Source of the DNA: Lingula anatina
Taxonomy: Eukaryota > Animalia > Brachiopoda
Assembly: GCA_051362555.1 (NCBI GenBank)
Contig: CM120641.1
Coordinates: forward strand, 39,624,401 to 39,688,400
Length of the DNA: 64,000 nucleotides
Reading direction: 5' to 3'
Position numbers and translations under genes: made by a program. Of the stretch, positions 31,501 to 63,553 are shown piece after piece (the first letter of the stretch is position 1; every line of letters begins with the position of its first letter). The notes below the pieces were generated by a model. That model had not been told where the DNA came from. It saw only the letters and a list, made by a program, of their open reading frames with translations, and ran no database searches.

Positions 31501-34184
31501 CTCTGCACAGCACACCACCCAGAAAGGTAACAAAAATGTGGTATACTTGGATTTTTTATACATGTTTATATATTTGTTTGTTTGTTTGTTTGTTTGTTTG
31601 TTTGTTTGTTTGTTTGTTTGTTTATGAATTTTTGTATAAAATGAGATCTGAAATGAGTGTCTCATAATAATGAGTTTTGAAATGTGCAGTACATTTCAAA
31701 TACTGCATGCCCACCCTGGATGTATTTTACCATATCATGTGAGTGTTTTTTTTTTTTTCTATTTTTATTTTGCCAACATAGCAAAATAAAGTACAAGATT
31801 CATTTGGTATTTATTTTACTTTTCAGGTTTTTGGTCCCTATCAGTTTCCAGCAGACCAATCGCCCAGTTCCAGTTGCATATTCTCTCAACACACAGTTCC
31901 AGTTGACAAACAATGAGAAAATGTTTCTTCTAGATCCCAAACAACCTGAAATCAATATGAATGAACTGGACTATAATGGAGCTTTTACTAAAGGTAAGCT
32001 TTACCATCCCCAAAAGCTTTTGACAAGTGATCAATATTTTTAAGTTTATCTATGTTACATGAACAAATTTGTATCTTTGTCTCAGTTGAAGGGAATTGTG
32101 ATTTATTTGGTAAATGATTACATTTTTGTACTGCTCACACCATAGTTTCCAAGCTACAGTTCTGTAAGGTTAAAATTCTTTGGAGTATTTGTGTGGTCAA
32201 AATGCATGATCAGTTGATAAAAAAATATGCTCTTTTATATGGATTGTTCAACAGGTTGAATGTCTGGCATACATCTAGGTATACATGACTCATTAGGTCC
32301 TAAATATGTTTTTTAGTGTTTGTTTGCCAGCTTTTCTCTCTTGCTGTAGTATCACATTAGAGACACTTTATGGTATATGAACCTGTATTCTATTCAATAT
32401 CAGCTAAAAGAACATTAGCTGTCTATTTGCCTTTATATAATCCTGGTGACATTGAACTGCAGGTCAGACTATCTATGGGCGTGTGCTGTGGAACCCAGAA
32501 CAAGACTTAGACACTGCATATGAACTCAGAATAGAGAAAGTTTATATCTGCACAGGTGAGTGACCTTCGGATGAGAAGATTTTCTTTTCCAAAACATTTG
32601 ATCAAGATGATGTATATGTTATCATAGGCTCTGTGATTACAGTACTTTTAAGTTTAACTTGAAAGCTTGTGGCTTTGCTTTCTTGAGTTTAAAGCTTAAA
32701 GTCCATTTTGACTTTTGTGTATTTAAACACTCGTTGTTGTTCTCCAGGCAAAGATGGATATGTCCCTACATATGACCCTCTGGGAGATATCTACAATGAA
32801 GGACCACAGTATGGGTGCATCCAACCAAGTCCTTATCTCAAGTATAGATTTTTAATACTGGTAAGTTATCAGGAAATAATACAATATGCCAATACATCAT
32901 CTCATTATTATTTATATAGTGTTCACTGAAATTAATACTCATGAAAAAAGTTTCTAATTTTCTTCCCAGTGATTGTTATAGTTACAGAGAGATGTGTAAG
33001 TTTAGCCATGCAGTTATCAAAATTTCAACAGTTTATCACTTACTCAGTACATACTTAGTTAACATTACAATTCTTTTTATTCATTTAATTTCAAGGACCG
33101 GGGTAATCCAGAGGCTGCAGTGATGTCATTCAATAATGTAGATTTTGGTGCTGAGCTGGCCAGTGAGAACCTCAAGTATATATCACTGGTCAACATGCCT
33201 GGAGTGGATGGCTTCATCCTCAAAGTGGACCCTCTGTACAAAGTAGGTGGAAATACAAAAACATGTTGATCTTTTGTATATGCTTCAAAAATCCTTGATG
33301 TTATTTTGTCATCATAAAATATATTTGTAGTTCTCTGTCCTTCTTATCAGAGTGACTGTAAAATGTTCATAAAGTAAAGTTTATTACCCAGATGTGTAAA
33401 TGAGGCCCAATGCATTGGTTGTTTACACATATACATATATAAAAGGGGCCATGTATTTACTGCTTACAAGATTCCCACTTACTTCTGGTCTTATTTATGT
33501 TGTTCATTTTAACATGACTTTTTTTTTATTCCCCACTTTATGCCTCCCCACCCTTTCTCTCTTTTATTATGCTTTACTGCAGTTTCCCACTGAATATATG
33601 CTGATCATATCTTAACTTGATACTTTCAGGTTGATTCAGGACATCAGTGGTACCTCCAAGTCATTTATGTTATAGGCCCCGCAGACAGGTTACACAGATA
33701 CCAAAGAGATATCACTCCAGCTATTACCAAGAGAGATCTCAGGAAAGCAACAGACGATGTGTGGATGAAAAATAGTCAGCAGAAAAACGGAACGAATATA
33801 ATGTTTCTGAGACTCAATATGAGCGGTTATGAAGCCTTTTCTCTATCTTCTGACGAGGCAGAGTTTAATTATTTGGTTCCAGTTGTACCAGCAGTCTGTG
33901 TGTTTTTACTCATCTTAGTAATATTGATAGTTGTTCTCAGAAGACGTGCAAAGAGAAAGAAGCAACACAGTGAACACTCTGCAAATGCTCAGATTAAGCT
34001 TGCAAATAATGACAATATTGAGAACGTGTACAGAGACCTCCCTAAGCCAGTACATATAAGAAGCAATAATCTGGACAGACCAAGTAATTTAGTACTCACC
34101 TCAAAAGGAGCCCAAGTGAAAATAAAGGACACAAACTTAAAGAAATCTCATAAAAATGTGAACACAGTAGGCACGGAGGTGTGA
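1079..34184 (+). CDS. FRAS1: Extracellular matrix protein FRAS1-like (VWC x6, CSPG repeats, Calx-beta x5, TM, PDZ ligand); 5'-partial, 55 exons in window
   Basis: Phase-compatible exons read manually: 1079-1186, 2550-2639, 5123-5282, 6948-7081, 8536-8619, 9022-9126, 10891-10948, 11155-11288, 11606-11692, 12279-12387, 13668-13772, 14091-14281, 14585-14735, 15044-15225, 15402-15530, 15775-16030, 16294-16403, 16683-16839, 17028-17234, 17474-17651, 17910-18072, 18294-18426, 18711-18898, 19195-19348, 19594-19676, 19949-20129, 20414-20602, 20874-20993, 21256-21435, 21743-21867, 22202-22342, 22869-23117, 23394-23486, 23703-23853, 24100-24323, 24636-24743, 25066-25231, 25519-25599, 25814-25983, 26158-26281, 26528-26739, 27046-27193, 27478-27683, 27964-28120, 28480-28680, 28878-29065, 29310-29393, 29630-30677, 30986-31146, 31414-31526, 31827-31993, 32463-32555, 32748-32860, 33096-33242, 33630-34184. 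N-terminal VWC domains plus the GTEV terminus point to FRAS1 rather than FREM2/ECM3. Confidence 0.93.
2791..3019. mobile_element. MITE copy A (about 230 bp; second copy at 22379-22611)
   Basis: Ends ATCGTTTCAATGGG ... CCCATTGAAAAGA form an imperfect TIR; the interior (TTATCAAACTTTCAGATACATAATTTTATAATC...TTGTTGCTACCACTCAA) aligns with 22379-22611. Confidence 0.75.
7058..7460 (+). repeat. 47-bp minisatellite, 9 copies, spanning an exon end and its 5' splice site
   Basis: Unit TGTCCAGATCTCAGGTGTGAYCAG|GTGAGT...; copy 1 supplies the end of exon 6948-7081; two unit subtypes largely alternate. Confidence 0.92.
9209..10791. mobile_element. Non-autonomous DNA transposon, hAT-like, with 17-bp TIR and 6-bp TSD
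   Basis: Starts CAGACTTTACGAAAGGC (9209-9225), ends GCCTTTCGTAAAGTCTG (10775-10791), flanked by CTTTAT on both sides (9203-9208, 10792-10797); clustered subterminal TCAGAC/TCCGAC motifs; CpG-richer than the host intron; no transposase ORF. Confidence 0.85.
12304..12699 (+). repeat. 98-bp tandem repeat, 4 copies, comprising most of a VWC exon plus its donor site
   Basis: Units start at 12304, 12402, 12500 and 12598; each reads CATGCAGGTTATGTGTTTGTGTCCAGGG...CAAG|GTGAGTACTGGTAA with few substitutions. Confidence 0.93.
13478..13529 (+). repeat. (GAT)n microsatellite
   Basis: Imperfect GAT run in a FRAS1 intron. Confidence 0.85.
18887..19135 (+). repeat. 24-bp minisatellite, about 10 degenerate copies, spanning an exon end and donor
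   Basis: Unit ATATCCATACTG|GTAAGTGATAAC; copy 1 is the end of exon 18711-18898. Confidence 0.88.
22379..22611. mobile_element. MITE copy B (same family as 2791-3019)
   Basis: AATCTTTTCAATG ... CATCGAAAAGATT terminal inverted repeat; interior colinear with copy A. Confidence 0.75.
24230..29030 (+). other. FRAS1 exons encoding five Calx-beta domains
   Basis: Motifs IVINDDSIFEGPETFYVELS, IIDDSNYETLEQFEIVLS, ILDDNADPRVEGNETFIVFLS, IVDDTEYEPDEIFKVKLT, VLYNEDVEWHETFMVVLG. Confidence 0.9.
31573..31623 (+). repeat. (TTTG)n microsatellite
   Basis: Perfect tetranucleotide run in an intron. Confidence 0.9.
33630..34184 (+). CDS. FRAS1: FRAS1 last coding exon: TM helix, basic stop-transfer and PDZ-binding tail
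   Basis: VDSGHQWYLQVIY...; hydrophobic YLVPVVPAVCVFLLILVILIVVL followed by RRRAKRKK; ends GTEV-stop, the GRIP-binding type of terminus known for FRAS1. Confidence 0.9.
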   Translation, partial: VDSGHQWYLQVIYVIGPADRLHRYQRDITPAITKRDLRKATDDVWMKNSQQKNGTNIMFLRLNMSGYEAFSLSSDEAEFNYLVPVVPAVCVFLLILVILIVVLRRRAKRKKQHSEHSANAQIKLANNDNIENVYRDLPKPVHIRSNNLDRPSNLVLTSKGAQVKIKDTNLKKSHKNVNTVGTEV

Positions 34185-34280
34185 CACTGACGTAAGAATG
34201 TCTCTAATTTTACCAGCATGCATTTCAACACAGGGTTAATCCTTCAGGATAGGAGTTCCCCTTGCTTTATATGCATATCT

Positions 34281-34284
<4 letters not shown>

Positions 34285-34317
<33 letters not shown>
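34285..34317 (+). repeat. (GAT)n microsatellite in the FRAS1 3'UTR
   Basis: Perfect GAT run about 100 bp after the stop. Confidence 0.85.
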
Positions 34318-35163
34318 ATTATGCAGAAATTTTCAATACTGATTTGTTCTAGAAATCACCTATCTTTGGTGGAATACTTTCGTTAAAGATAAGAATTTTT
34401 TAGTAAATACACATTTTCAGGTATAAAGCAGAAATTATGTGAGTTTATAATTTACATGCAGCTAGTGACATAATATCTGCTTGTGCATAAACACCAGTGC
34501 AGTATTGTAAATTTGTTCCTCTATAGAATTTTTTTACTGGAACAATTGATGATTTCTTTTTTTAGATTAAAGTTATGGCTGTAGATTTAATTTTACAAAA
34601 CTGACAAGAAAAGCAAAAAAGGAAAAGATAATATTAAAGTCAGTTTTTGAGAACATTGTTTTGTTTTTTTACAGACTCATTTTTTTTCCGTACACTGATA
34701 ACAAAATACATGTATGCAGGATAATAGCACGGTTATCTTTAACTCTTACATGTACTATCCACCTTCCAATTGCAGAGTATAGTTCTTGCTAACTATTTTA
34801 GTATTGTTCAAGTCACATTTGTGACAAGGTCAACTTGTGGATATTTTTACCTTACCACTGAACTTATAGACACTTTTTCTTACAATTATGAATAGCAAAA
34901 CAAAATTTGCATTTCTAAATTACAGAACTTTCCTACAAATCCTCTCTTTTATGTATTAACATTAAGTTATCCCAAAATTGCATTTACTAGCTACAGTACT
35001 CAGATTTTGTGGTTTAAAGTGTATTGTTATTTTAAGAACAGTTGCTGATTTGTTATTATTATTTATTGCTGAGGACAATTGACAAGAATGATTTTTGATG
35101 CAGACTCTGGATATTTTATATTTAATATTTTGTATATTATACTACAAATAATGAATAACATTT

Positions 35164-35169
35164 AATAAA
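35164..35169 (+). terminator. Candidate polyadenylation signal of FRAS1
   Basis: AATAAA about 1 kb after the stop codon, followed by a T-rich tract. Confidence 0.4.
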
Positions 35170-35439
35170 TAGATAAAAACATGGGATTTTTTGTTCTTAA
35201 ATATTGATTAAGATGTCCATTTTAGTAGGGATAATTTTAGGGATTTGTTTTACATATTACTTGTATGAATTTTTACCTTACGCCTTTTCACTCAGTGGTA
35301 TTATGCAGGCTCCAATGCTATTTGCTGTTTTTCAAAGACTTGTTGCACATTTTATATTGAAGCATTAGCAATACATACTCCATGGAAAAACTGAATATAT
35401 TAAGATGTTACGAGCTAAAGCTGTGTAAATCATTATACA

Positions 35440-35820
35440 TACCACGGGGCTGATATCAAAACAAAAGGATTGCAGGGACCGATACAATGAATGAGACGGA
35501 GTGACTGCCACGTGCGGAAGATGGGCAGGAAATCGGCCAATTACTCAGAAAACCACTAACGCAAACGAAGATGATTGGACGGTGACCGCAATTAGGCAGT
35601 AAACGCGGGGAAAGTCCATTTTTTGATATCACCTCATGCGCGGTGATATCAGCGTGTTCTATTCAAAGTTAGGGATTTTGGGTGGAGAACACGCACGATT
35701 TCCCTTTGTATGTATGACAAATAATGCACTGTTACCCCCTCGCCCGATATCCACGATAGCATGCCTCGCTGGCGCTCGGCCTGCTATCGTGATATCGGGC
35801 TCGTGGACAGTGCATTATTT
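35440..35820. mobile_element. CpG-rich interspersed repeat fragment ending in a hairpin of about 100 bp
   Basis: AAATAATGCACTGT...GCCCGATATCCACGATAGCA (35719-35761) pairs with TGCTATCGTGATATCGGGC...ACAGTGCATTATTT (35782-35820); repeated GATATC motifs; non-coding. Confidence 0.55.
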
Positions 35821-36544
35821 ACTACATAATGCATGCTACACTTATGAATTCCTGTGTACTAACACATACAATTTGTTACATATACATGGATCAAGCTATA
35901 CACATATTTTCAGTAATAAAATTCTACTTTCTTTTTACTCTTTTCTAATGAGGCTTCACAGTTTGGCAAAGTTAACTTATGCTAAAGATACTATGAGTAG
36001 AACATAGAGTGAAAAAAATTTTGGAACTCCCTTATTTCCATTTATTGCATGAACCAATATATTTTTATGAAATGTAAAAAATATTTTATTTTAAATTAAA
36101 TTAAGATATTTTAAATTAAATTAAGATAATTCTATACCTCTTTTATTAATTTACAAGAGTGACCTTGACTTCTTAAAAGTTAACAAAAATATCACTGCCT
36201 TTTAAATATTTAAACTGTAAACTTACTCACACACACACACACACACACACGCACACACATGACTTGAGGTTTTAAAAAAGCTTACAAAAAGGGGTGTTGA
36301 CATTTTGTTTTCAGTACTTCGTATATTGCAACCCATTACACGAGAACGCTTATTCAAATCACTCATTTGAAAAGGAATATTCAAAAGATACAGTTATAAC
36401 GACAAAGAAAAAAAGAAATAAAAAAAAGAAAACTAACAGGGAAAAGGTGTGCTGTGAGCATAGGGCTAGATTAACAGTCCAGTTAAGCGGTCACTTCAGT
36501 TTTTCATTTATGTCCAGAATTAATTGCCTTTGTTCTTTGTGTAT

Positions 36545-36785
36545 GCTAAAATGGGCGTGGTCTTTTTATCACTGACCAATGGTGTAAAAAGACTTCGATG
36601 TTAAACTTTTGCCCTTTCTGAAACAAGTATTTGGGTCAAGGTCGCATAATGGTGGTGATCGGTTATGCTAAAGCGCCCAATTTGCAGTATTTTAACCGCA
36701 TTTTCTACCGCATTACAGTCAGATATTAGTCTCACAGTCCCGTGGTGGGGCAGAGATCGAGCATCTAAGCTGACACCAGAGAGAG
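36545..36785 (+). promoter_or_regulatory. Putative promoter and non-coding first exon of the 38479-39642 gene
   Basis: GC-box GGGCGTGG (36553-36560), CCAAT (36576-36580), locally CpG-rich, donor GAG|GTATGT at 36785/36786; matching acceptor TTCTATTTCCAG at 38437, 41 nt before the ATG. Confidence 0.5.
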
Positions 36786-38478
36786 GTATGTAATCCAGAG
36801 ACAGAAAAACGTCTTGAGTTGACCTACTTTGTCCCTTGTTTCTGACGAAGTTAAAACTCGCAATTCTGTGTGGGTTGTTCCTAACAATATTGTTGTTATT
36901 TCACCATTGTTGCCCTATGACTTCTTTTGTCTTGTCTGCCTCGTGATTCATGTTATTATGAAATGCCATGTTATAGAAGAGTCATGTTAGGTAAGAGCGG
37001 AAATAAAGACAAAACAGTATCGAGGACGTAAACATCATTTTCCTGTTATTGGTAATTTGGTTGATGTACATGTAAGTTATGTATAATTACTTAATATTTT
37101 GTCATTTCAACATATTCTGATCTGTGAAAAAGTAACTGTTTATTTTAAAGGCATCAGGAAGTATCTTTTAAATGCTGATGTATCCACCAGATTTTTAGCC
37201 AATTCATGGTTGAAAAAAAATTCACATCACACCTTAAATAAAAATTTATTGCCATAGCCTTAATAAAATCTTCACAAATTTAGATTGGTCACGGACAATG
37301 TGTCTATTAAAAGCTTTCTGAAATACCAAATACCACAATTGCTATAATTGATATTCAGATTAACCCACTGTTGAACAAGTAACAATGAGCCCTACTTTTT
37401 GTAAGTTGATAGAATGAAAATACTACAGAAATGTGCAGAAAATTGATAAGAAATAGATAAGTTGATGTTTTCATATTAGGTGTTTAATGTTACCAGTATT
37501 ATAATTTTTATGTAATTATTCAGTAATGTGTCTATCTTTGTGTTGATTTAAAACAATAAAAATCCCCTCGAATATATAAAATACAGTATCTGCATTTATA
37601 TTTCTTGTTGCAATGTATAAGTATAAGTAACTCTAAGCTTTTGTTATCATATTTACACCTTTCTATTTTGGGGTAAGAGCAATCGGCATGGGGCCTAACT
37701 TCATCCTTGCACAAGATTTTATCACGAAAATTGGCAAAGTTGAGCACAAGTCAGCGGGCTACAATCCTGTGGCGTCATTTTGGTTTAAATGTTTTGTTTA
37801 TGGAGTTATGAGCCCCTAATTACAGATTTTCATTAAACAAAGGGATTTATTTTGCTTTATCAATGTTTTAAAAAATCTGAACCAAGGCTTTTAAGAACTG
37901 CTGGCAGGGTTTTGGAGTACTAAATGGTGTCATTAAATTGGCTTGAAAATGGTGTTCGTGAGTGCGTTGCCCATTAGATGACATGTGTGTAAATGTTAAT
38001 TAATTAAGTCACTGAACACTGAAGATCTATCTATCCATAAGAATGTATGTAATGCTGTAAATAAAGAGTTTTTGTCAAAAGCTAACAATATTCTAAAGTC
38101 ATAGAGGTAATTCACTACATGTACATAAAATTTTGAATTGCGAGTCTTTAGTTTTGGTTGGTTGTGGGATTTGTAGAATAATTTATTTTTTAGGTAGCTA
38201 CAATTATATTATAATGCATAACCCTAATATCAGTTGCAATTAAAACCAATTGGACTACTGTAGTTGTCTGCCAATGCCTTGCAAGCTGTCTTTAATTATA
38301 TAACAAAAAAACCTATCCTATTTTTATGCTACATGTGTTGTTAAACTTTCATTTATGAAGGTACCAGTAAATTCTCGTGTTCTTTATGTATGCCTTATGG
38401 GTGTTTACTATTTTATATCATTTCATTCTATTTCCAGGTTTTCATACAACACATTTCTCATTGAGCAGTGTTCAAACA

Positions 38479-39642
38479 ATGGCCAGTAGTTCAACTCCAA
38501 ATGCAGCCAGCATCATGCTGGAGTTTGCAGCTAACACAGGACTTTACCCAGAGAGACTGCCACCGCGCAGATACCTGTGGACTGATGCTTATGCTGTATG
38601 CAACTTCCTGGGCCTGGCAAGAAGGACTGGGGAAATGAGATACCAGCAGCTAGCCCATCAGCTAGTGGAACAGGTACACACATATCTAGGCAAGCACCGC
38701 CCAGATGATGCCAGGCAAGGCTGGATCAGTGGGCTGTCAGAGGAGGAAGGGAGAGTGCACCCTACTATAGGAGGATTGCGCATAGGAAAGCAGCTGCCTG
38801 AGCGTGGTGCTGGAGATCCAGTTGATGATGATTTGGAGTGGGATAGAGATGGCCAGTATTACCATTACCTCACAAAGTGGATGCATGCTCTAACATGCAT
38901 GACCGTGGCCACAAATGACCCAAAATACAATATTTGGGCAGCAGAGCTTGCAAAGACTGCACATGCAAAATTCACTTACGGCTCAGGGAATCGTAAACGC
39001 ATGTACTGGAAAATGAGCATTGATTTATCCCGCCCCCAAGTGCCTTCCATGGGACACCATGATCCTCTCGATGGCTTAATCACATACAATGTCATCCAGA
39101 AGTACCTGCCCCTGGGACAGGAAGGAATGCCAGATCTGGCTGCAGAGATTGTAGACATGGAAAATATCTGTAAGTGTCGGGACTGGGTCACTACTGATGC
39201 CCTGGGGATGGGAGGACTACTTACAGATGCTTACAGAGTCCTCAAGTTAACAGTGGAAGGGAAGCTAGAACGTGGAGATCTCCTCACTGAGACAATTCTA
39301 GAATCAAGTGTGGTGGGTATGGAAGGATTTGGCAGTAGGAAACTCACAGGGAGTGCAGAGAAGCGTCTCGCCTTTAGAGAACTTGGCCTTGTTATTGGTT
39401 TTAAGGCTGTCCCACAGATGCTGTTATTACTAAAGCAGCATCCACCCCTTGGGTTCAACAGGCCAAAGATCCCCATGGAGATTGATCGGCTGCAGAAATA
39501 CAGTGATGAAATCATGAATTCAGTGGTATACTTCTGGGAGGACCAGAACAACAGGAATGCCTCTACATGGAAGGGGCATCTGGATATTAACATGGTGATG
39601 TGGGCAACCAGCTTGGAACCAGAGGGCTTCTACTCTATCTAG
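38479..39642 (+). CDS. Uncharacterised 387-aa protein of a prokaryote-like family (possible alpha/alpha-barrel, six-hairpin glycosidase-like fold); intronless ORF, HGT candidate
   Basis: Uninterrupted ORF; ATG in ACAATGG context just after a splice acceptor; motifs PPRRYLWTDAYAVCNFL, GWISGLSEEEG..HPTIGGLRIGK, LEWDRDGQYYHYLTKWMHAL, RMYWKMSIDLSRP.VPSMGHHDPLDG, RLAFRELGL.IG, HLDINMVMWATSL.PEG recalled from bacterial/archaeal hypothetical proteins (recall, not a search result). Confidence 0.85.
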   Translation: MASSSTPNAASIMLEFAANTGLYPERLPPRRYLWTDAYAVCNFLGLARRTGEMRYQQLAHQLVEQVHTYLGKHRPDDARQGWISGLSEEEGRVHPTIGGLRIGKQLPERGAGDPVDDDLEWDRDGQYYHYLTKWMHALTCMTVATNDPKYNIWAAELAKTAHAKFTYGSGNRKRMYWKMSIDLSRPQVPSMGHHDPLDGLITYNVIQKYLPLGQEGMPDLAAEIVDMENICKCRDWVTTDALGMGGLLTDAYRVLKLTVEGKLERGDLLTETILESSVVGMEGFGSRKLTGSAEKRLAFRELGLVIGFKAVPQMLLLLKQHPPLGFNRPKIPMEIDRLQKYSDEIMNSVVYFWEDQNNRNASTWKGHLDINMVMWATSLEPEGFYSI

Positions 39643-42019
39643 AAGGGCTCTCAGTGCAGGCAGTCATAACTACTTACAAGACTTGTTACAAGACTGCGAG
39701 TTACATGAGGACTGCCTGTTTTAGGAGAGAGAGTCGAACAAGGATGTGTCCACAGCAGTCACGATACAAGCTGACTGCTTCAAGTCACACTGTTTAGAAA
39801 GACTTGTGTAAATCACCTGATAAAGTCCTGTTCAGATACACAATTGCAGAGGATGGCTTTTTATTGCAGTAACCAGGGAATATTGTTGCTCATGATACCC
39901 TACATGTTGACTACCCTTGGCATCAACTGGCAAGCATTAGGATTTCTGGTGTAACTCCTTGGAAGATCCTCCAAACATGGGTATTTACGGAATATTTGAA
40001 AGGGGGAGAAGGAGCCCTCAGAGATAGTTACAGTGAAGATTTATCTAATGATATTCATTCTAAAAAGATATGTTGAATAGCAGCACTTTGAACAATCTAA
40101 AATTACGAAAAAGAAAATTTCTTTTTCTAAAAGAAATTAGACGTATATGCTGGCATCCATGCAATTATGTATGGTTGTTTACCGTAAGCATTAAAAAGAA
40201 AGAATGAGTATATATATCGGTTTATTGGGTTTTGATTAATTCTAAGAATTACTTGGAAAGAAATATTTCAGGGATTGTCACTTGGTTTGTAATTATATCA
40301 ATAATATGACTAGGTACATCTTTGCAGTAAAGGATCAACTTGCTCTGTTATTGACCCTGATTTTTATAATGGAGAAAGTCCAGAGAAAATATTATGATGT
40401 TTTCTGATTGCAGTTATATCTTAAATTAAATTTACATCTCCATGCAAGGAGTTAAAATGCTATTATATTCAACCTGTCTTTGCAGTCAGAAATCACCTAA
40501 GTATAGTGCAGTTTGTTAGTGAAAAATGTAACATATTATAATTGTGTTAGTTGTGACTAGTGTCACATCTTTGAAATGTGGGTACACGTTTTCATGAGCC
40601 TCTTCTACAGGCCAAGGTAGGGAGAATAATACATCAGAGCATTTACTATTGCTATGTAGGCTGATATTACATAAGAAGTGATCTTTTGTGCTGTATGGCA
40701 TAAAGATCAAGCAAAATACAACAAATTATGTTGAATCTAAGGTACCTCTTGTAATGAAATTTGTTGATTGAAGTGTGGTATTTGTATTATATTGTGTCCA
40801 CTTAAAGTTCACTGTGTCTTTTAATCAATTGTTATTGAAGACAGCGCAGGTTTGCACATATTTTTGTAAATGCCATGAGTAGCATAATGTGTCAAAGCAG
40901 TGCAGTTGGAGGCATTTCAAAGATTGATTCTTTCGATTGGGAAAAAAAGCAACCAGCAAGTCCCCTGAACAATTCCCTAAACAGTTTTTCCACATTTAAG
41001 TGGTATCTGAGTTTTTCTCTTTGATGATAACTGAGCATAATCATAGTCTTTAACTTTTCAGCCCACTAGTCACGCAGACTATTAGGTTTCTAAAAACTAC
41101 TAGTCTAAGTCAAAGTTAACTAGTCCAAAGTTGAAACTTAAAGATTTTGGGGGAAATGGTTGCTATATTACACTAATCCAGTTTGACAAGTAAATTGGGG
41201 GGAAAAATGTAAAAGAGAAAATTCACTCAATTACAGACAAGCAGATACTTCATATACAGTTGCATTATTGTGATACAACTTTATGTCATTAAATTTTGTA
41301 TTATATTATTCTTGGTCATGTTCTTGATGTTCACAATAATTCTGTTGGGAGGATTTTGTTGAGAATTCCCTTCAATAGACCTGCACTTTCCTCAGTTAAA
41401 AGGAAATCTATCACAGCAAATAAACCTCTCTTATGCTACATATCTGAATAATTCCAGCCATTTGGAATGCTTATTTCACTTGCAGATATTTGTATTTTTA
41501 GCGGTTTTGTAAATCATACCGGTGAATACTGTTTTCCATCCATGTTCTGATGGAACAGTTAGAGGTGTAAAATGTAGTTTTGTGAGTTATTATGTAATTG
41601 GATATATTTCTGTTGGTGTTTTATCTGCAAATTAGTCGAGTCATTGTTCATAGTTTTTGTATGCAAAATTCATATATGCACGCAGAAAATTGGGGTTATT
41701 ATAATTATCAAGTCTTGTTTTTTTCCTTTTTTTAAAGTCTGTATATGTGCAAAACACTGACAATTATAATAAAAACAAGACACAAAGAGGTTGAATAAGA
41801 ATTTTTCTGCTACAGATTTTTACATATGTACATATTTCTGTTGTTTATATTGGTAATTACACCCATCCACTTCTTTCCTGCCATCTGTGTGTTTGGAAAA
41901 AAAACTGATAAAGATAAATAAGCAACCCCCATTTAATGTTAAGAAATATCTCCTCTGCATGCTAAAAGTTTTGGCAAGTGTTCACATTATCAGGTGTTGT
42001 CATTATTCAAATATGTACC

Positions 42020-42025
42020 AATAAA
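42020..42025 (+). terminator. Candidate polyadenylation signal for the 38479-39642 gene
   Basis: AATAAA followed by a GT/T-rich tract at the end of a CpG-poor stretch; other AATAAA hexamers occur upstream. Confidence 0.3.
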
Positions 42026-42518
42026 GATATTCTGTACAAACAGTGGATTCTTGTCTGATTTCAAGCTTTCCTTTCTAATCAAATATGCCTATGAGTTTTG
42101 ATTGATTATTAATAAAAAATATGATAAAAATTATAAGAGTCAAATCGGTGCTAGTCATCAAGGGCCCACAGTGCCCCCTTTTTCATCTGACATTTTTTAA
42201 CAATTGTCTATTTTGTAAAATCTGACAATTCTAGTCTGTGCTATGAATCTTTTTAAAACCTTGCTACATTTTCCACATGAGGGCAAGAGCAAGCTTATTT
42301 ATTTATTTTTTTTTTTTTTTGGGGGGGGGGATTTAAAACTAATGCTTAATTTAAAAATATTGAGAACTGCTACACGTATACTTGTATTACCAATGAAAAC
42401 ATTTTTGCTTTGTAAATAACTGATGACTATCTTACTACATAATGGAAAATAATGATTATAAATTTATAAGTTACCTTTATAAATTTGTAAAAACGAAATT
42501 GTAACCAATGTTTTCTAC

Positions 42519-42692
42519 GGGGGCGTCTCGATAGTCCGAAGGTTCATTGGTCCGAAGGTTCATTGGTCCGAAAAGTGGTAACATTTTCATCGATTTTTTA
42601 ATCAAGGGTTCATTGGTCCGAAGGTTCTATAGTGAACCTTCGGACCAATGAACCTTCGGACTATTGAACCTTCGGACTATCGCTACGGCCCC
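42519..42692. mobile_element. 174-bp MITE with 8-bp TSD and inverted 16-bp subterminal tandem repeats
   Basis: TTTTCTAC at 42511-42518 and 42693-42700; ends GGGGGCGTCTCGATAGTCCGAAGGTTCA / TGAACCTTCGGACTATCGCTACGGCCCC; internal unit GGTTCATTGGTCCGAA. Confidence 0.88.
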
Positions 42693-42933
42693 TTTTCTAC
42701 TAATCTAAATACTTTGACTCTGATTTTGAGCGCACTTTTTTCTGTATACACTTTTAAAAGTACGTTATATTTCACTCTCGTACAAAAAAATAAGACCGTT
42801 GTCTATCCATTATCGGACAGATAAGGTCACTTCGGCCGCTTTATTACGGTCCGATTCAAGTCCAGTACATTATTAACAGATTCCAGCTGCAACTTCCGTC
42901 ATCTTTTGGTTGATTGCGATAGTTGTTACTTTT

Positions 42934-45637
42934 TCACAACAGTATCACATCCGGAAACTCGAGTATTCCGAAGCCTGCAAGGCATACGAGTATTATAAAA
43001 AGGAAGATCACGGTTGTCAATATCCCTGCAAGCGCAACGTTTCGAGACCGTAGTCCGTTCCTTTTAGCGGCTGCCACGTTGCCTCTTTTCCACTCGAATT
43101 TTGACACAACTGAAAAAGTGAAAGTTATGCACATGAATTTCCTATATCAAAATAAATTAATCAATTGGCGGATAAATAAATAAACTGATCACTACAAAAC
43201 GCTGGGTTTGAACAATGTCACAGCAGTAGGTAAGACAAGTATTCAAAACGATGAGGCTACAGTTTCTTCCTGGCTACCGATATATATTGGCCTCAGTGGC
43301 GGATGGGGGGGGGGGGGGGTCAGGGGGTCCTCACTCGGTCTTTAATTTCTGAAAAAAAATCACACCGATGATCCCCACTTGAAATTAGAATTTTGACTAG
43401 CTGAATCATAGTTCTAAACCGTACCAAAAATTTTGGAGCCCTCCAGCAGGCCCCGAACCCCACGCCAAGGAAGGGGGGAAGGTCAGCTTTGTATCTGCGG
43501 ACCCCCCCCCCCCCTTTCAAATAATCCTGGATCCGCCCCTGGGCCTAGTCTATGTATTAAGACCCTTTGTATTAATACTATGTATTAATCTAAACGAAGT
43601 CTATGTTATAATAAACAAGGCTTACGACCGACTGCGAACGAATTTTGACCTATTCTCACAAGCATGAGGCACGAAATTCATGCGTTATCACTCGTACTAA
43701 TAAGCATGTAACAAAAGAAAAGGCTGCGATAATCCAGTAACACTGATGAATGAATTTGATGTTGACTACCAAATACTGTCGTTGTCCCAACTTTGAAGGG
43801 GTGAAAATAGAGAAAAATTTCGTTCTCCAACAAATCCATGTAAGGGCGTGTCCTAACATCCGCCCATCCAACCACAGTCACAAAGATAAATCACATTAGG
43901 ATGTTCGCGGTAAAGTGAGGCCACGTTATGGGTCAAGCGTCCGGTGTGCGACATGTGTATGATGTAGACAAAATTGCAAAGATTGTATTTTAGTTTCGTA
44001 GCCCCTCCCTCTAAAACTGGGCGAGGTACGGTTCACTAGCCTATCTATTCGTGTTATCTCTTTTTGAAATGAACTCCCTGGAAAAAGTATGTAGGCCTAA
44101 GCGTGTGCTTTCGAATTCTTCTTTAATTAATTATATAAATGATACTAATCATGAATAGTCGCAAAATACATAACATTTGAAAAATAAGTGCCACACACTG
44201 GACAAATATCTATGTAATATTATATTGGGACAAAGCAACAAGGTCACTCGAGTTGCAAATAACCTCTAAAGAAAACATTAAATTTTTTTTTTTTTTTTGC
44301 CATAATCGAATTTTTCTAGATAGTAAGACCCAAAAGAATTTCCCAGGGTTCTGTTTACTAGAAACTTTGATCAAGAAAAAAAACACGGTCTCCATCAGAG
44401 ATGTTAAGGCAGTTACATTGAGCTCAAAGCAACAAATATTCTAATGTCAATACTGAAATCCGACTAGTTTTAAACCCGTGTAATGCTAAGATTTGTGTAA
44501 AGCATCATGTCACTAAAAGGTCTTTATAATGTGAGATAGTAAAACCAGTGAACTTTCAAAAGTGGTTTGTTATTTTTTCTCCTCTTCCAAAATATAACCC
44601 CTGCTAACCCGCTATGTCAGCTGACGTCGCTGTCTACTCTACGGCGATGAAAATAACATTCGTTAAATTCTTACTTAAATAAAATTGGCATTAAAATAGA
44701 TATATACGGACTTTTATTGCAATATACTTACGCGAAAAATGAATTGCTATCAATCCAAACAGTACATTGAAGACCATGGCCACTATAATGGCAAACCACA
44801 TGTAGCTTGCAGGTTTCGGAGGTGGGCACTTGAAGAAAAAAGGCATGTGCGGCGGTTGCCATGGCATATCTTTGGGAGGCGCTGTTATGACAACAGGAGG
44901 TACAACTATTGGTCGTTGAAAACTAGAAGCTCTAGAAGACCAAGTATAGTACGGGAAAGATTCTAAACTTTCTGGTCGCATCCCACTGTAGCGACTGTAG
45001 TCGGGCGTTGCCGTGCGATACGACGCCCTTTCGTCCTCATCGTGGTGAAAAATGAGACCTCTGGTGTAGGTATGACTCCCACTAGGTCGGCCAAAGTATA
45101 TTTCCTCCCCGTACCTTAAGTCATTGCCATGCGTCCCCTCCTCGTAAATGGGGTTCAGAATCACGGAAGACCGGTAGCCTTTCCTCGTACTATATGTGTT
45201 CCTATGAGGAAATGGATTTGGTATAAATGTCGGCGCGTAGTTGAGACTGTAAAACCGCCGGTGTTTCGATGAGGGGTCTGCGTGATGTGTTGGGCTCTCT
45301 GATTCACTTGGGTGCTCTTCTTGGGAGTCGTGGACTGCCCTTGGTGTTTCAATGTCGGAACTTAGAGGATGTTCAGACTGTAGGTCGTCATGCACGGAAT
45401 CACCACGAGGACTGAAATGGAGTTTTCGGTCACTTAATATCTGAATAGTATTAACATTTACAAGCAAGAGACAATCTTCAAGGTATCCGAATATAAGGGA
45501 AATTTAAAAACTTTAAACTGCCCAGTGCATGACAAAAGAAATATTTCACAATGAACACAATTTTGCTCTTTTAAGAAATGAATCAGCAGCAATACTTACG
45601 GTGACATATAGGAGTGAGCGGAACTAAAAGTCGACAT
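42934..45637 (-). CDS. CD225/dispanin family membrane protein (PRRT/IFITM-like), about 297 aa, 3 coding exons
   Basis: Exons 45637-45600 (MSTFSSAHSYMSP), 45411-44732 and 43109-42934 join in frame via GT-AG; C-terminus PPPKPASYMWFAIIVAMVFNVLFGLIAIHFS-LVSKFEWKRGNVAAAKRNGLRSRNVALAGILTTVIFLFII matches the CD225 pattern (hydrophobic helix, G..A..FS, G(D/N)...A, TM helix). Confidence 0.82.
43294..43541. mobile_element. hAT-like MITE with 5-bp TSD in a dispanin intron
   Basis: Starts CAGTGGCGGAT, ends ATCCGCCCCTG; GGCCT on both flanks (43289-43293, 43542-43546); subterminal G-run and C-run. Confidence 0.78.
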
Positions 45638-48600
45638 TTTCGGTTAGTTTCTCAGCCAAATGTCCTTATATCCAAATCACTATCTGAATACACGAAAGGT
45701 CCATGCGCCCCGTTTTCCCTAAATTCGATCAGGAAGCCAGTTGAAACCTGCCCGAATCCGTGCAATCGTCAACAAAGGCAAGGAAGCTAATGGCACTGTA
45801 ATATAAACAGTGGCCACAGAATCTACCCTCATTCCAACCTTTTCTGCAAGGGAGTACCCCGCAGCGATGACGGCGGCATGTAATAGTAGCGAACGAATGC
45901 GAACATGGGGTGACGCCTTTGTTAGTCGCGAAAAGATTTTCGGACAGATAGATGAAGCTTGTGGCAACCTTTAACAATAAACCATAATTACCATAAATCA
46001 TAGGTGTTGAGGATCTATATCGCACACTACATCTCTTGGTGAAATGTCAGCTTGAGAGGTTCAGACTTCAAGCAAAATATCCGTCAAATATTCAGTGATG
46101 GAAGCGACCCAAAAAGGATTTTTCTTGCACTTCAGTGTTTTGCTCATTGTAGTTCAATGTTTCGCGGGGTTTGTAGTGTTTGGTGTTGAATAAAAGTGTC
46201 ATCTGAGACAATTGGTTATATACAAAAGGTTGGACCACTAAAATGATTTATTTCTAAATCATCTGCGTCTTTCTTTGGAGAAAGAGATTGTTACCCCTCA
46301 GACCAGCAATGTGTTAAAATTATATTTTTGACAACTACCCCCCCTCCCCCCCCCCCCCCCCATACACACACACACACACGCATACATCCAAACATACCTT
46401 TACAAGAACCTAAAAGAAATCGGTTGTACTACATCAATCTTGATTAAAAATAATAGGGATTGTTTATTTGAGATTCTGCCTTTGAAGCAGGACTTTATAT
46501 AGCTTATTATCGCCTTCATATATTTTTCATCAAAAGTGTTCTCAGATATAAGATAACATTAGATCATTGTTCAGAACCAGTATGCGCAAGTTTATTATTA
46601 ATTGTAGCAGTTCTTCTCGCCAAGCAAATCAGACAGCAATCGAGTTAGTCATACGTTTTTATATTCAAAACTAATTAGTGAATTTGACTTTTCTTGACTA
46701 CTCAATACACTTTCGAGACGTTTGGAGAATCGTTATTAAAGCAAATGCGACACACGAACAGAATGGCTTGAACGGTGCACATCCTTCAGAAAATGTGTCA
46801 TACCAAATCATTTTCAAAGTTCGAGCTCGTTATGTAAATATGGAGCTTTAAAAATGCATCCTTTTCGCTAGGCCTGAAGGTTATTGAGCTACGGGGTCAC
46901 GTTAAAACATACGTAAATGTACGTGTGCATGACTGACATGATGGCCAATCGTGTCACAGATAAGGGTGAGTCATTTCAGTTCAGAGAGCATTGATCGAGT
47001 TGCCTAATTTGATCACTACATCGTATTGAGCTGTCATTTATGTTCCCGTAAATATCGATATTGCAAGATAGCTGTTATTACATGTAAAGCAATCGTCTCA
47101 AACACTTACATAAACTGCCGTATCACCTTAACTTAGTACTTAGGACACTTGCCACTACTATTAAAATCAACAGGTTTGTTCTATCAAGAAGATCTCTCAA
47201 ATTTTGAGGGGCGGGACATTTTTCATTTCATCGAATGACGATGGTGCTATCTATCGCGCGATCGTGCACGGTGTGAAAAATATAAACTACTTCATTCACT
47301 TTGTGTTAATTGCAAACTTCGAAAATGGTCGATTTACATCCGGTATCTGTCCGATCTCGACAGTAACCTACTAACAAAAAGGAGCCTTGGTCGACACGAT
47401 GAAAGCAAGCTGTCAAATTTAGCTTACATAATTATAAATACGTCTCAGTGAATGCATTCTAAAGATGGAAGATAATTTAATGATTAAAGTAAATGCATTT
47501 ATGTAAATTCCTTATATTTGGCCGTGCGATGCTGTCCGTAAATTAACACAGGCATGTTCAAATCATATTAAAAATAGAAATGGGGCCCATAAATTCATTA
47601 TTGTACTTTATTCATAAGATTGTTTTTCTACTACTAACTAGTGGTTATCAAACGTGTGTTTTCTATCCGGTGTCATCATGCCTGGTTCTTCAGATTTGTA
47701 GATAAGGCTGGTCAAACACCCTAACTGCCCTTTTTTTCGGTAAATCAGTTATCGCACAGTATGTATGTAAATTATCCAGGTGCTAACTCGTAACTGAAAA
47801 AGTTATATAGTCTTGACCGCTAAACGTGACTATGATTAAGTTAAGAGTGTTTTTAATTAACATTTTGAAGATAAATCTAAAGACAAAGCCGTTACTTCTC
47901 AAAAGTGTCTCAACGAATTACTGCCTGACTTGCAATTACAATGTACTGCTTCCGCTCGTCTGCTCAGAGTATAAGTCGAAGAACACCGAAACATGATTTT
48001 TCTTAAATGAATATCACGGGGAGAGCTAAAAACAAGAATTAATGTATTTTACACTCAATATTGGAAAGCTGGCGTCATCTTTGAACCATCGTCGCTTTGC
48101 GTCATAAAAAGCTACTCGCAGTTACTAAAAACTTGTTGATCACGTTCTCACTTCTCTGCACTTGATCACTACACCTAGGATTTCAGGATTTGATTTTGCA
48201 CAAGTGGGGCTATAAGATATTTTTTGTCGTATTTACACTATGCTACAGAATTAATTTAGACTGTGAGAAATACATCTCGGAACATTTAATTTTTCAATCT
48301 TGGTACAGGACAAACATTTGCAGTGATTTTTGTTTTCTAGTCTGTGCAGGGCAGGCGTTACTGTTTTTGTATACCACATGTCAAAATTTATCAAGCAATG
48401 ACGTATATCCATTCATTCTCTCGGCCAAACTATCAGCAGTTAAGGACAATTTCATTTATTTTCCAGCTCTGTAAAATGTTTCCAAACCCCGTGAGCATCG
48501 CCATGATTTAAACAGCAGAGACTGAGAAGCGATAACCTAATAGATTCCACCAAATCAAATAACCCATCGGAGGTCAATGCGACTAAAAGAAACAAAACAA

Positions 48601-51688: not shown

Positions 51689-52321
51689 TCACTGGCCCAT
51701 GGTCGCCTTCGTGTGGCCAGTATACCAGACAAGCCAAGCGATAACAGCAGACATTGTCAGTATGACAACAACCAGGGACACAGCACACGACAATTTTCCA
51801 CGCAGTTTTGCTCCCTTAATGTCACCCCGTTTATACGCAGCCACAGAAGACAGCGAGCAACAAATCCCTATAAAACCAAGGGGAATATTCATGAAGATTG
51901 TCACCGCCAATGCCATTGCTAGGTATGTCTGAGGCATATTTTCGTAGAGATTTGGGTTGGAATATATGTCGCCGAAGCACCATGCACAGTTGCAACACTC
52001 GCAACAATCTGACTGTTGGATATCTATCACGCTCCCAGTATCCTTCTCTTTCTCATGAGATTCTAAACTGTTTTCCGAGCGGATGCCTTGTTTTTGTGGC
52101 ATTTTCCCTGCAGCTTGAGTGTTGTCACTTTTGTCTACTTCCTCCTCCAGCAAGCCCTGTTTCTCTGCATGAGCCTCCATGGACGCTGGTCGATGTTCTT
52201 GATAAAATTCACTAGTTGTCCTGTTGACTTTGAAATCAGCGTTTTCTCGGCCTCCGCGCTGATCTCCAATGCTAAGAAAACATTGAAGACTGGGGTCTCT
52301 AGTGCCGTTATTAGATTCCAT
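51689..52321 (-). CDS. CD225/dispanin family membrane protein, 210 aa, single coding exon
   Basis: MPQTYLAMALAVTIFMNIPLGFIGICCSLSSVAAYKRGDIKGAKLRGKLSCAVSLVVVILTMSAVIAWLVWY is a CD225 domain; it is preceded by a low-complexity N-terminus and a CCECCNCAWC cluster. Confidence 0.85.
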   Translation of the reverse strand: MESNNGTRDPSLQCFLSIGDQRGGRENADFKVNRTTSEFYQEHRPASMEAHAEKQGLLEEEVDKSDNTQAAGKMPQKQGIRSENSLESHEKEKDTGSVIDIQQSDCCECCNCAWCFGDIYSNPNLYENMPQTYLAMALAVTIFMNIPLGFIGICCSLSSVAAYKRGDIKGAKLRGKLSCAVSLVVVILTMSAVIAWLVWYTGHTKATMGQ

Positions 52322-53427
52322 TATTATAATCTTGACACTTGGCAGTTCGTAATTTTCAACGATTCCCGTCTTGTCTCTTTATACAAACCACGTTGCATTT
52401 AAAGCATCAACATCTAACGCCCCTTTAGTCGACTGCAAATAAGTAAAACCATAGAGGAAATTTTGAATAGTTTCACTTTTCTGTTGTTGATGGTGTAATG
52501 CCTTCTCTCTCTCCTGCGTCACTAGACGCGGGAGCGCCTGAATGCTGATGACGCTGACAACATGAAAACAAAGCAGGGTCTTGCGCAAAGTCTCTTACAC
52601 AAAGACTACAATTCGAACGCATTTGCTTGTTACTTCAGTTCCAGAGTTCAGGTGCATTTGGCGTCTGAGAATGATTAATTTCGCGTCAAAACTAACCTTA
52701 TAGAGCTTGGAAACTAATCAATTATACCCGATAGAGATATGTAAATTGCCCACATATGAATGGAGTCATTCCCGAGAGACTTTCAAAGCTGAGAAAAGGA
52801 ATATAAGAGACACCGTGGGTTACTGTTTACTTTCAGTGAGTATTTAATTTGACCACCGATAGGTGGGGTTTAAATCAATTTAATTTGCAGTGTTAAGTAC
52901 GCATTACCAATTGTAAATCACAAGTCACCATCGACTTCGTATTGGTAAAAATCTCCACCATGACAATCTATCATGATTCTATTAAATAAATATCTTACTA
53001 AATCTTTGTTTCTAGTCTTCCTAATAATTGTTGTTTTTATTTGGCAAAGAAATATCAATAGCTCAAATAAGTATGTAATTACTTAAGTCGAAATGTTTTG
53101 AGAATGACAAGATCAAGTTATGTAAAAAAGTTATTTTGGCACAAGAATATCCCACTCAAGGTTTTATTCTCATTTGCAAAACAACTGTATCGTATATTGT
53201 ATTTGAAAGAATCGATAGCAGTGTTAAAAGTTCACAAGCGTTGGGTTTCAAGTTTCTCCAGATTTCCCTTGATCGATGAAATACTTGAGGTCAAGTAAAA
53301 AATACTTCAAATCGTGCTCACGTATTATTTCCAAATAATCACTTTATAGACTCGGGAACGCAGATAGAACCTAATTATTCCAGGAAAAACATAATTGGAA
53401 AACTGTCAGCAAAAATTTCTCATGTGA

Positions 53428-61100: not shown

Positions 61101-63553
61101 AATAAGAATGATTAATATAAATATAAATTGATTTACTGTAAGCTCCATTTAACAATAATTTTGGTTGTAAATACATGTGACTAATGAAAACTGAAGAGAA
61201 ACACCAATTGAGAAAACAATAACTAGTTATTCCATAGTGGCATTCAATTATGTCATTCATCTGTTAAGTGGATTGGTAATTCAGTGCAATGCCTACACAG
61301 TAACACCTACTGAAAATTGGCATTACTAAAGCTAGTTGATCAGCAGGCTGATTAGCAAGTATACTTGTCTGCGTAATAACAAACATGCACAACCAGTTTT
61401 TCATTCATACCAAATACTATATATAAAAACCCTTGAACAGGTAGAGAGCATGTTTCTGTTGCTTTATTTTCTCTATGTATGCAATAAACATTGAGTGCAT
61501 TATTCAGTTTTTAATAAACATAGCTGGTAGAGGTTGTAAAATAGAACATCCCCACTAGATAAATGAAGAATCAGATAATTGAACTATATACTGTTTTATC
61601 TTAATGATGCAAGTTTAAGCTCATGTAAACATTATTAATTTTGATTCAAATTATATTTCAGGCTAGCGAGGAGTTTGTGCCTGGTCAACAGCAACCACCA
61701 GAGAAAAAGGTGTGTGTTCATCATTTTATGTTTTTGTATGCATTGCTGTGAAGACTGTTAACAATGAATTTGATGTTACATATCACAGCTCATGAACATG
61801 TCCATACATTAAAATTGTGTAACCTAGATCAGGTTGATAATTATTTTGTGTAGTAGTAAATGAGAAATGTAATGTATTGACTGAAGTGAATGTATGGGTG
61901 AAGTATTGTACTGACGGATATACATCAATCCTACCTCACAGGTAAGACAAGCACACAAGTGTCCAGAACACCTGCCAGGGATGAATGGACATTCTGTGGA
62001 GCTGACTTCAAGTTTTCCCCTCCAGAGGGCAGAACCCCCTCAGTTACTTTCAGAAATGTGGCCACATTTCATAGCTAAAAATATAGAATTCAAGCTTCAA
62101 CAACAGTTGGGAGATGGAGGTAAAGAGCATATTAAATTACAGTCAGGTTTTCCTACAGGTATACATGAAAACCAAATTGCTATTTTCCCAAGAGACGCTA
62201 ATAGAAACCGTGAACAGCTTCATGAAGCTTTTAAGAATGGAGATGACAAAAACATAAACCATGTAAATTCCTTTTCTCAACATTTACCTGGGAACAAAAA
62301 AGGATGCACTGAAAATCAGAATCTATCAGGGAAAGGTGTCCATTCAAAGGATTTGGTAAGGGAAATTGTTCAGAAAAGAATTGAGTCCAGAACCCCACCT
62401 AGAGCTCAGATGAACAGTGTGTCACCAGTAATAGACAAGGAGGGGGCTCCAAATACTAGTTACATGAACAAAATTGAAGCAACTCCCCCCTGTGTGGTAA
62501 CTGAGGGGGTAAAGGAGGGGACATTCCATCAAGCACAAACGCAGAGAGAAACTCTGTACAACAACTGGATAAATCCTCTGAATAGCTTTCATCCAGGGAC
62601 TCCAAAAGATTCCAGGAACTCATTTACAGGAAACAACGCTGTTCCTGGAATAGATGGATTAAAAGCAAGTATTGAGAATGGACCTGGTCATTTATCTCAG
62701 ATGGCCTCTCTTCCAGGGTTCTCTGGGAGAGAGAACAGCCACCAGGTGGAACCTTTGTCAATCCGAGCCAATCCTGGAGACTCTGCAAACACCAACTTCT
62801 CCGGTAACAGCAAAGATCAATTTATGTCAGATCACATTCAGCCTGCTTCGACATCCACCCCTCACTGTGATACCACCACACAGCAGGCTGACAACACAAA
62901 AGGAAACAATGTTTTAACAACTTCTGGTCCACAGGCACTGTCCTCCTCTGTGCCACCAATGCCAGTCCAGCCCAATGCTTTCATACCGCAGAAAGTGCTC
63001 CAGCCAGCTGATCTGGTCAATGGTGTGCAGGGGTCAGCTGGTGACCAGACTGGACATCTGACCACTGATGCAGTGGCCGATACCCTTGAGGAGCATGACG
63101 AGCTGTTTGAGAGACTGAAACTTAACCAACCTATCAAGGTGCCTGAGTGTGGGTGCCTGGGACCAGAAGGTAGGTTTTACTGTGGTGGAAAACAAAGTTT
63201 TTCTCCTCTAAATGCTTTGAATGTTGATGACTTTTTAGGATGTGTTGAAAGGTCCTTTTTATGGGTTTTCAAGTAGGCACAGTTCCTGTAATATATTTCA
63301 ATACGCTGATTATTACAAATGCAAATTATATAGCAATACCAAAAATAAAGGTAAAAATTTCAACAAAAGCTTACTTCTTTCCTTTTAAGTCTCACAGTAT
63401 TTTGTAAACTGCAACATTTTATGAAGTTTTTAACTTTCTATATGTACCCATGTCTCCACTTGTAGGTGTTAAAGAGAAGGATGAGGGACCATACTACACA
63501 CACCTGGGGGCTGGGTCTACAGTCCAGGCTGTAAGAGAACTGATGGAGAGGAG
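58110..63553 (+). CDS. TET: TET methylcytosine dioxygenase, 5' portion (3'-partial)
   Basis: Exons 58110-58619, 61662-61709, 61942-63169 and 63466-63553 join in frame; ...[39 protein letters not shown] is the hallmark start of the TET Cys-rich domain (cf. EKDEGP(F/Y)YTHLGAG in TET2/3); the first coding exon carries a partial CXXC-like motif. The catalytic DSBH lies beyond the window. Confidence 0.9.

Follow-up and report, generated by a model that had tools for sequence, protein, structure and literature searches.

A spliced Lingula anatina gene shared with sea anemones belongs to an undescribed family of predicted barrel enzymes

The 64-kb window analysed here (one continuous stretch of Lingula anatina DNA, to which all positions refer) contains an intact 387-codon open reading frame at 38479..39642 (+), as had been predicted. 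This frame is part of a real Lingula host gene that is integrated, spliced and expressed. The gene is most probably an old one that has survived in scattered lineages: it likely predates the cnidarian-bilaterian split, probably goes back to a lineage shared with amoebae, and has likely been lost in most animals. Its product is predicted to be a soluble (α/α)6-barrel enzyme, probably acting on a small anionic substrate of sugar type. The chances that this account holds in all its parts are roughly even.

The Lingula gene belongs to an undescribed family of barrel enzymes, with thousands of proteins in bacteria, archaea, fungi, protists and a few animals, and with neither a Pfam or NCBIfam model nor a sequence-related solved structure. 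A literature search by accession found no paper. The words “horizontal” and “lateral” do not occur in the main text of the Lingula genome paper, the supplements of which might list the gene (PMC4595640). The family provides a new case for the question of retention with heavy loss versus repeated transfer, posed by genes common to amoebae, anthozoans and brachiopods. Other genes already provide examples of this pattern, so the result is less surprising than a recent domestication would have been.

A spliced host gene between FRAS1-type and dispanin genes

Every motif named in the original prediction is present in the reading frame, the product of which matches the last 387 aa of L. anatina XP_013410277 (LOC106173635; 441 aa, annotated “uncharacterized protein”) at 100%. 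The gene had also been described as intronless, and this is contradicted by RNA. Four runs from three studies were mapped onto 33000-46500 (6-25% of each run read), and a 1652-nt GT..AG intron at 36786..38437 (+) was spliced in all of them, with 5, 9, 10 and 10 reads crossing the 36785->38438 junction. The part of exon 1 from an upstream ATG in the same frame as far as the donor site (36665..36785, +) is defined by RNA depth and the joining of frames; RNA depth is present in the bin 36608-37058 and absent in 36157-36607, and reads cover 36670. Translation from this ATG, relative to which the intron is in phase 1, yields 441 aa, and 440/441 residues are those of the RefSeq model. If Met 36665 is used the intron is a coding one, and if Met 38479 is used it lies in the 5' UTR. 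The conserved domain is encoded wholly within exon 2. A high-copy repeat lies in the intron, where DNA depth reaches ~20,000 (bin 37438-38004).

The context of Met 38479 (CAAACAATGG) looks stronger than that of the upstream ATG, so two isoforms, one from ATG 36665 and one from Met 38479, are possible. The long form would carry an N-terminal extension of 54 aa, 40 codons of which are in exon 1, with 6 Lys/Arg and 3 Asp/Glu and a best 12-residue hydrophobicity mean of 1.2. With no strongly hydrophobic stretch this is not a classical signal peptide; it is possibly a mitochondrial presequence. The predicted cytosolic location without a signal peptide may accordingly be kept for the short isoform only, the long one having this possible targeting extension. 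An out-of-frame upstream ATG opens a 26-codon uORF (36649-36729) that overlaps ATG 36665 and could tune the choice of isoform.

In three stranded libraries the frame is transcribed from the + strand, as FRAS1 is, with coverage to ~42,000. A 3' UTR of ~2.6 kb (39643..42286, +) is drawn from stranded RNA depth to ~42019 and from one spliced contig spanning 38436-42286; it contains several AATAAA/ATTAAA sites, of which those at 42020 and 42111 lie furthest downstream. The RNA variants listed in the reading frame are synonymous in 9/9 cases (8 codons), against 22% expected at random. They fit purifying selection, only suggestively because they were drawn from the 40 best supported of 416 variant rows.

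The predicted placement between FRAS1-type and dispanin genes was borne out. Upstream lies a FRAS1/FREM-type gene with Cadherin_3 in 6/10 tested exon pieces and Calx-beta in one, the last coding exon of which, encoding a transmembrane segment and tail, is at 33621..34184 (+; splice 33242-33630). Downstream, CD225/dispanin matches were found at 51689-52378 (E 6.5e-9) and, weakly, at 44691-45503 (E 0.058). The nearer dispanin (CD225)-like gene occupies 43109..46046 (-), is spliced (CT..AC joints 43109-44732 and 45411-45600) and is expressed in some runs. The dispanin/CD225-like genes at 43109-46046 and 51689-52378 (-) stand in tandem and have long low-complexity N-termini.

Bacterial contamination or a chimeric assembly might be suspected from the fact that no single contig bridges FRAS1 and the reading frame, the pieces ending at repeats. 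The spliceosomal intron, polyA-selected expression and 2.6-kb 3' UTR argue against it. So does DNA depth at the host level in three runs from two studies (~90, 115 and 79 over the frame versus 95-112, 37-132 and 60-114 over FRAS1 exons), as well as a DNA contig (37997-41718) that runs from the intron through the frame into the 3' UTR. Such an artefact is extremely improbable.

A large, mostly prokaryotic family with few animal members

The protein has no match above cut-off in Pfam or NCBIfam, and among PDB sequences none was found at E 1 with the protein itself or at E 5 with profile A1. At least 8000 candidate homologues, all with E <= 0.001, were collected, with 1565 family representatives at 50% identity. 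The family is mostly prokaryotic, and the best prokaryote-type matches are 53-58% identical to the Lingula protein. The best 80 of 530 genome loci (50-56% identity) come from Thermodesulfobacteriota, other deltaproteobacteria, Nitrospirota, Spirochaetota, methanogens and similar organisms. Across 401 genomes drawn evenly from the phylum to which one carrier genome (G001) belongs, the family is rare, with members in three, the centre included. Among 92 pattern matches on viral contigs there were no relatives, so no viral carrier is seen.

A short subfamily (~300 aa, 28-31% identical to Lingula) is found in rhizobia and soil metagenomes. Three plasmid records carry family members, all of Rhizobium and with ~28-30% identity; a plasmid copy is annotated as two genes in Rhizobium SRDI969 (L081, 5962-6864) and as one in Rhizobium Q54 (L082, 5968-6894). 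Some short-subfamily members bear the NCBI label “GH76 protein”, which lacks Pfam support.

Eukaryotic homologues were found in the sea anemones Nematostella vectensis and Actinia tenebrosa (53-58% identical to Lingula), in the amoeba Arcella intermedia (47%; transcriptome-derived), in the green alga Picocystis salinarum and in the heterolobosean Pharyngomonas kirbyi. The Nematostella homologue is also present on a 17.9-Mb sequence. An Atlas cluster of 128 members is 61% eukaryotic, with Ascomycota commonest. The family had been described as prokaryotic with fungal relatives, and both parts stand in that it is mostly prokaryotic with an Ascomycota-rich cluster; the description needs to be widened to anemones, an amoeba, an alga and a heterolobosean. 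Lingula and the two anemones are the three named animals with a family member among the matches listed. A profile built from four animal-like rows found no further named animal in its top 120 rows, and no vertebrate or insect name came up in the top 120 rows per search or among 28 proteins looked up.

P0186 (with P0363-P0367) stands closest to the Lingula protein, at 59-61% identity and on contigs of up to 1.7 Mb. Together with P0122 and P0038 it is called animal-like from tree position only. P0186 starts near residue 140, and its first residues look as if the end of an intron had been translated, so its gene may have a coding intron at this point.

Origin of the Lingula gene

Lingula groups with the sea anemone rows in every tree, and with Arcella in 4/5; the trees are unrooted and include no fungal sequences. 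Its sister is the P0186 cluster, with 97-100% support. When Lingula and P0186 were constrained to join the nearest bacteria without the anemones, the tree was rejected (p-AU 0.0014). Trees and AU tests thus indicate, from sequence comparison, that the Lingula gene and the anthozoan genes have a common origin.

The transfer domesticated in the brachiopod lineage that had originally been proposed does not survive this result. In favour of such an import, the conserved domain sits in a single exon, the top matches are mostly prokaryotic, and GC3 of the frame (0.50) is slightly above that of neighbouring host exons (0.39-0.47), a measure that, like GC, fails to discriminate host from donor. Acquisition by brachiopods alone is nonetheless highly unlikely given the consistent union with the anemones, the rejected constraint, and a strongly supported sister found on contigs of megabase size. 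Since anemones and an amoeba also carry the family, the gene appears to be an ancient one kept by few animals and not a fresh bacterial import. A bacterial origin of the family further back in time is still likely. The opposite outcome raised at the start, a broad distribution with a species-like tree, is seen in part: the animal range found is narrow.

The animal-like rows lie with Arcella and P0140 on one side of a branch in a FastTree of 342 rows (0.985), a quick IQ-TREE of 65 rows (SH-aLRT 99), a careful tree of 36 rows in which Picocystis joins them (87/100, the bootstrap not fully settled) and a careful tree of 30 rows (100/100). The last omits the long rows P0369, P0147, P0157, P0195, P0156 and P0146, which were chosen after seeing the trees. 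In a quick 36-row tree, the six animal-like rows stand alone (100) beside a gammaproteobacterium (85), apart from Arcella. Arcella itself is a long branch, nested inside the animal group in both careful trees, which is not species-tree-like, and it has few diagnostic residues in common with the animals (3/12 columns). Pharyngomonas falls among prokaryote-like rows in free trees. A tree with all eukaryotes as one clade was not rejected (p 0.18). Rooting on the short subfamily (branch 2.7) placed the root among the eukaryotes and was discarded as long-branch driven.

Of the possible origins, we favour presence in eukaryotes older than animals. The family, probably prokaryotic in origin, would have made a single old entry into eukaryotes; the Lingula gene would then be inherited from a lineage common to amoebae and animals, with loss in most animals. 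Because only three named animals are seen, vertical descent needs very many losses.

The entry would be later if the animal stem had received the gene in a single transfer, from an anaerobic prokaryote living in sediment, ahead of the cnidarian-bilaterian split. Arcella, Picocystis, Pharyngomonas and the fungi would then have acquired their genes independently, and the union with Arcella would be an artefact of long branches. Prokaryote-type matches (53-58%) lie no further from Lingula than the anemones do and nearer than Arcella, the animals are nested among bacteria in the quick 36-row tree, the remaining eukaryotes are scattered through the trees, and a tree joining animals and bacteria without Arcella was not rejected with 36 rows (p 0.19). 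The same arrangement was marginally rejected, post hoc, once the long rows were dropped (p 0.039, 30 rows). Arcella and P0140 are moreover joined to the animals in the four other trees, and there is no firmly supported single bacterial sister group. We regard the animal-stem transfer as unlikely, if a serious contender.

Alternatively, the gene may have entered eukaryotes once and then passed from one eukaryote to another, between animals and protists of the sediment. The very patchy animal range of three named species and the nesting of Arcella beside the anemones (91/84 in the 30-row tree) would be explained in this way. There are precedents in two reports: GH13_1 amylases show the amoeba-anthozoan-brachiopod pattern, with transfer proposed in brachiopods (PMC7003070), and rquA is described as transferred from a protist to a sponge (bioRxiv 10.64898/2026.04.08.717022). 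Identity between Lingula and the anemone-side rows reaches only 53-57%, as an old split would explain, and this weighs against such exchanges, which seem improbable as the main explanation. Because the internal branches are short and have weak support, they do not reveal a direction of transfer.

Descent from a eukaryote older than animals, the favoured origin, has its nearest parallel in the GH13_1 (“Dictyo-type”) α-amylases. These likewise occur in amoebae, anthozoans and Lingula and sporadically in other bilaterians, and whether they were retained or transferred is debated (PMC7003070). They differ in being an unrelated protein with known activity and much wider sampling, whereas the family described here is mostly prokaryotic.

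Predicted fold and relation to known barrel enzymes

The Lingula protein was modelled from a 142-row alignment (141 distinct rows) with pLDDT 96 and pTM 0.94. This model replaced a first one from 50 close rows (pLDDT 80), in which the loops were unresolved. It is an (α/α)6 barrel, the twelve-helix double barrel of the six-hairpin fold aligning over the whole domain, and the prediction of this fold, made earlier from helical pattern, agrees with the model and with structural matches of up to Z 21.5. That the fold is an (α/α)6 barrel is, on the strength of the model, nearly certain. The top 25 matches (Z 17.7-21.5 over 272-315 residues) are nearly all sugar-active barrels. Two are tied at the head, cellobiose 2-epimerase (5zig; Z 21.5, rmsd 3.9, 305 aligned) and a GH76-like protein (4mu9; Z 21.0, rmsd 3.8, 292 aligned). 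Other GH76 and AGE chains score Z 19.4-20.5; identity is 5-12% throughout, and Foldseek agrees.

The AGE superfamily (cellobiose 2-epimerase, N-acylglucosamine 2-epimerase and YihS; PF07221; 5zig, 4z4j and 1fp3) has the same barrel, colinear over model residues 5-382, and a similar size, but only ~10% identity to the Lingula protein. PF07221 gives 13.7 bits (E 0.039), below its gathering score of 23.4. When profiles were compared, 25 aligned AGE rows matched only weakly and in the wrong register (30% probability), and this match was set aside. AGE enzymes are described as needing a histidine centre, with a catalytic His pair and a third His (PMC5726027). At the position of the mid-barrel catalytic His (CsCE His247/RmCE His259), placed from the colinear fold alignment and not by residue-level superposition, no His column reaches 30% across residues 195-366 of 125 long-subfamily rows. 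The control AGE alignment has His at 185, 257 and 386. For the C-terminal catalytic His (CsCE His377/RmCE His390), His367 before the last helix is at most a tentative counterpart: conservation is 96% in the long subfamily, but the short subfamily has Arg at this position.

GH76 enzymes are mostly secreted. The α-1,6-mannanases of this family (PF03663; 4mu9, 6shm and 4d4a) have the same barrel and are tied with the epimerases at Z 20-21, but the Lingula protein has no clear signal peptide. It has no match to PF03663 at E 0.1. GH76 catalysis relies on consecutive carboxylates, exemplified by BcGH76 Asp124/Asp125 (PMC4321491), and no carboxylate pair of this type is conserved in the barrel core here. 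The only conserved adjacent acidic pair, D76-D77, is in an insert missing from the short subfamily. GH76 gave one strong match in the 401 genomes, too few for a control alignment.

The original description as “glycosidase/epimerase-like” is therefore apt for the barrel, which is near both groups, and fails for the PF07221 and PF03663 models, neither of which matches above cut-off, and for the catalytic signatures, which are not reproduced. As the mid-barrel AGE His and the GH76 carboxylate pair are both absent, model and sequence point to a six-hairpin enzyme of sugar type that is a member of neither family. LanC-like cyclases have a zinc-binding Cys/Cys/His set. A relationship to them was considered and rejected: no Cys column exceeds 66% in the long subfamily and none is common to both subfamilies.

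Conserved residues and a putative active site

Ten polar or aromatic residues are invariant in both subfamilies (R31, W34, D36, R101, Q126, Y127, H129, W134, K178 and D195) and six nearly so (Y32, D124, Y130, D182, D198 and R296). Many of these residues sit where barrel enzymes of six-hairpin fold form their pocket, namely where helices 33-50, 128-145 and 195-209 begin and in the intervening loops. R31, Y32, W34, D36, R101, D124, Q126, Y127, H129, Y130, W134, K178, D195, D198 and R296 would line a central pocket. Arg31, Arg101, Arg296 and Lys178 could hold a carboxylate or phosphate of the substrate, with the pocket aromatics packed against a sugar ring. Acid-base catalysis, in a hydrolysis or elimination and not a His-His epimerisation, may fall to Asp36/Asp195 together with His129.

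A substrate of sugar type is reasonably probable. The more specific proposal of a buried pocket, in which three Arg and a Lys bind an anionic substrate and Asp36/Asp195 and His129 act as acid and base, is put forward tentatively. The transaldolase AprG, a lower-ranking structural match (Z 16.0, rank 36), prompted a conjectural Schiff-base analogy for Lys178. With a common fold and a catalytic set unlike those of epimerases or GH76, the family is a concrete target for new enzyme chemistry.

Bacterial gene neighbourhoods and a possible cellular role

In the short subfamily, an erythromycin-esterase-like domain is encoded within 400 bp in 35/82 loci; where both flanks extend to 1 kb or more the adjacency holds for 17/35 loci, and for clusters at 90% identity for 26/55. 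The neighbour is oriented head-to-tail or tail-to-tail, both arrangements being seen, and wherever the flank is sufficient its esterase-like domain is fused to PCMT (protein-L-isoaspartate methyltransferase). By way of background, the esterase-like family occurs in 38/401 genomes with about one copy each. Both new long-subfamily carriers in this sample have an esterase-like gene, adjacent in one.

The PCMT and erythromycin-esterase-like fusion is itself a protein of ~660 aa, widespread in environmental bacteria (loci L081, L082, L084, L104, L116-L121 and L133-L164). A literature search found no description of it, and a search on the esterase/PCMT context returned one paper, an unrelated one on RiPPs (PMC8939145).

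Usp, P-type cation ATPase, CBS and PfkB genes are also found near bacterial homologues. This recalls the hypoxia-induced operon Rv2028c-Rv2031c, in which Usp and a PfkB-type kinase are described together with an esterase-like gene (PMC4410610). The likeness is one of neighbourhood only, and the esterase-like domain is here fused to PCMT and not to PRTase. It is also weak near the closest prokaryotic relatives of Lingula, with an esterase in 4/82 loci. Around these relatives PCMT is present in 8/82 loci, and the esterase is adjacent in two; several of these loci come from related Nitrospira-group genomes. An operon for these nearest relatives was rejected, since 100 of 142 adjacent genes were scanned and proved heterogeneous, with no recurring family.

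A housekeeping role in a low-oxygen stress or damage-repair module is proposed as the cellular function, though only loosely and as less likely than not. The PCMT/esterase link is strong only in the 28-31% identical subfamily, so a role in stress or repair is a lead.

Lingula and Nematostella burrow in low-oxygen sediment. A far-reaching synthesis would make the family an undescribed (α/α)6-barrel class with a new Arg/Asp/His/Lys site, working next to PCMT in a stress module of prokaryotes at low oxygen, where it would repair or remove metabolites or proteins damaged by sugars. It would have entered eukaryotes once and survived mainly in dwellers of sediment or low oxygen (burrowing Lingula and Nematostella; amoebae), and in Lingula the gain of an intron would have supplied an upstream exon and with it a second, mitochondrion-targeted isoform. 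Taken as a whole this scenario is a long shot.

Other features of the window

A 174-nt element at 42519-42692 contains 16-nt repeats between inverted ends of 54 nt, which are 91% complementary. Its copy depth is >100,000, and some haplotypes lack it, as a joint 42510-42693 in four runs shows; it is a polymorphic MITE-like insertion. Further downstream, 61915-63276 (+) is a 453-codon open stretch without a Pfam match that has a Cys-x-Cys motif at its end, presumably reminiscent of the Cys-rich region of TET dioxygenases.
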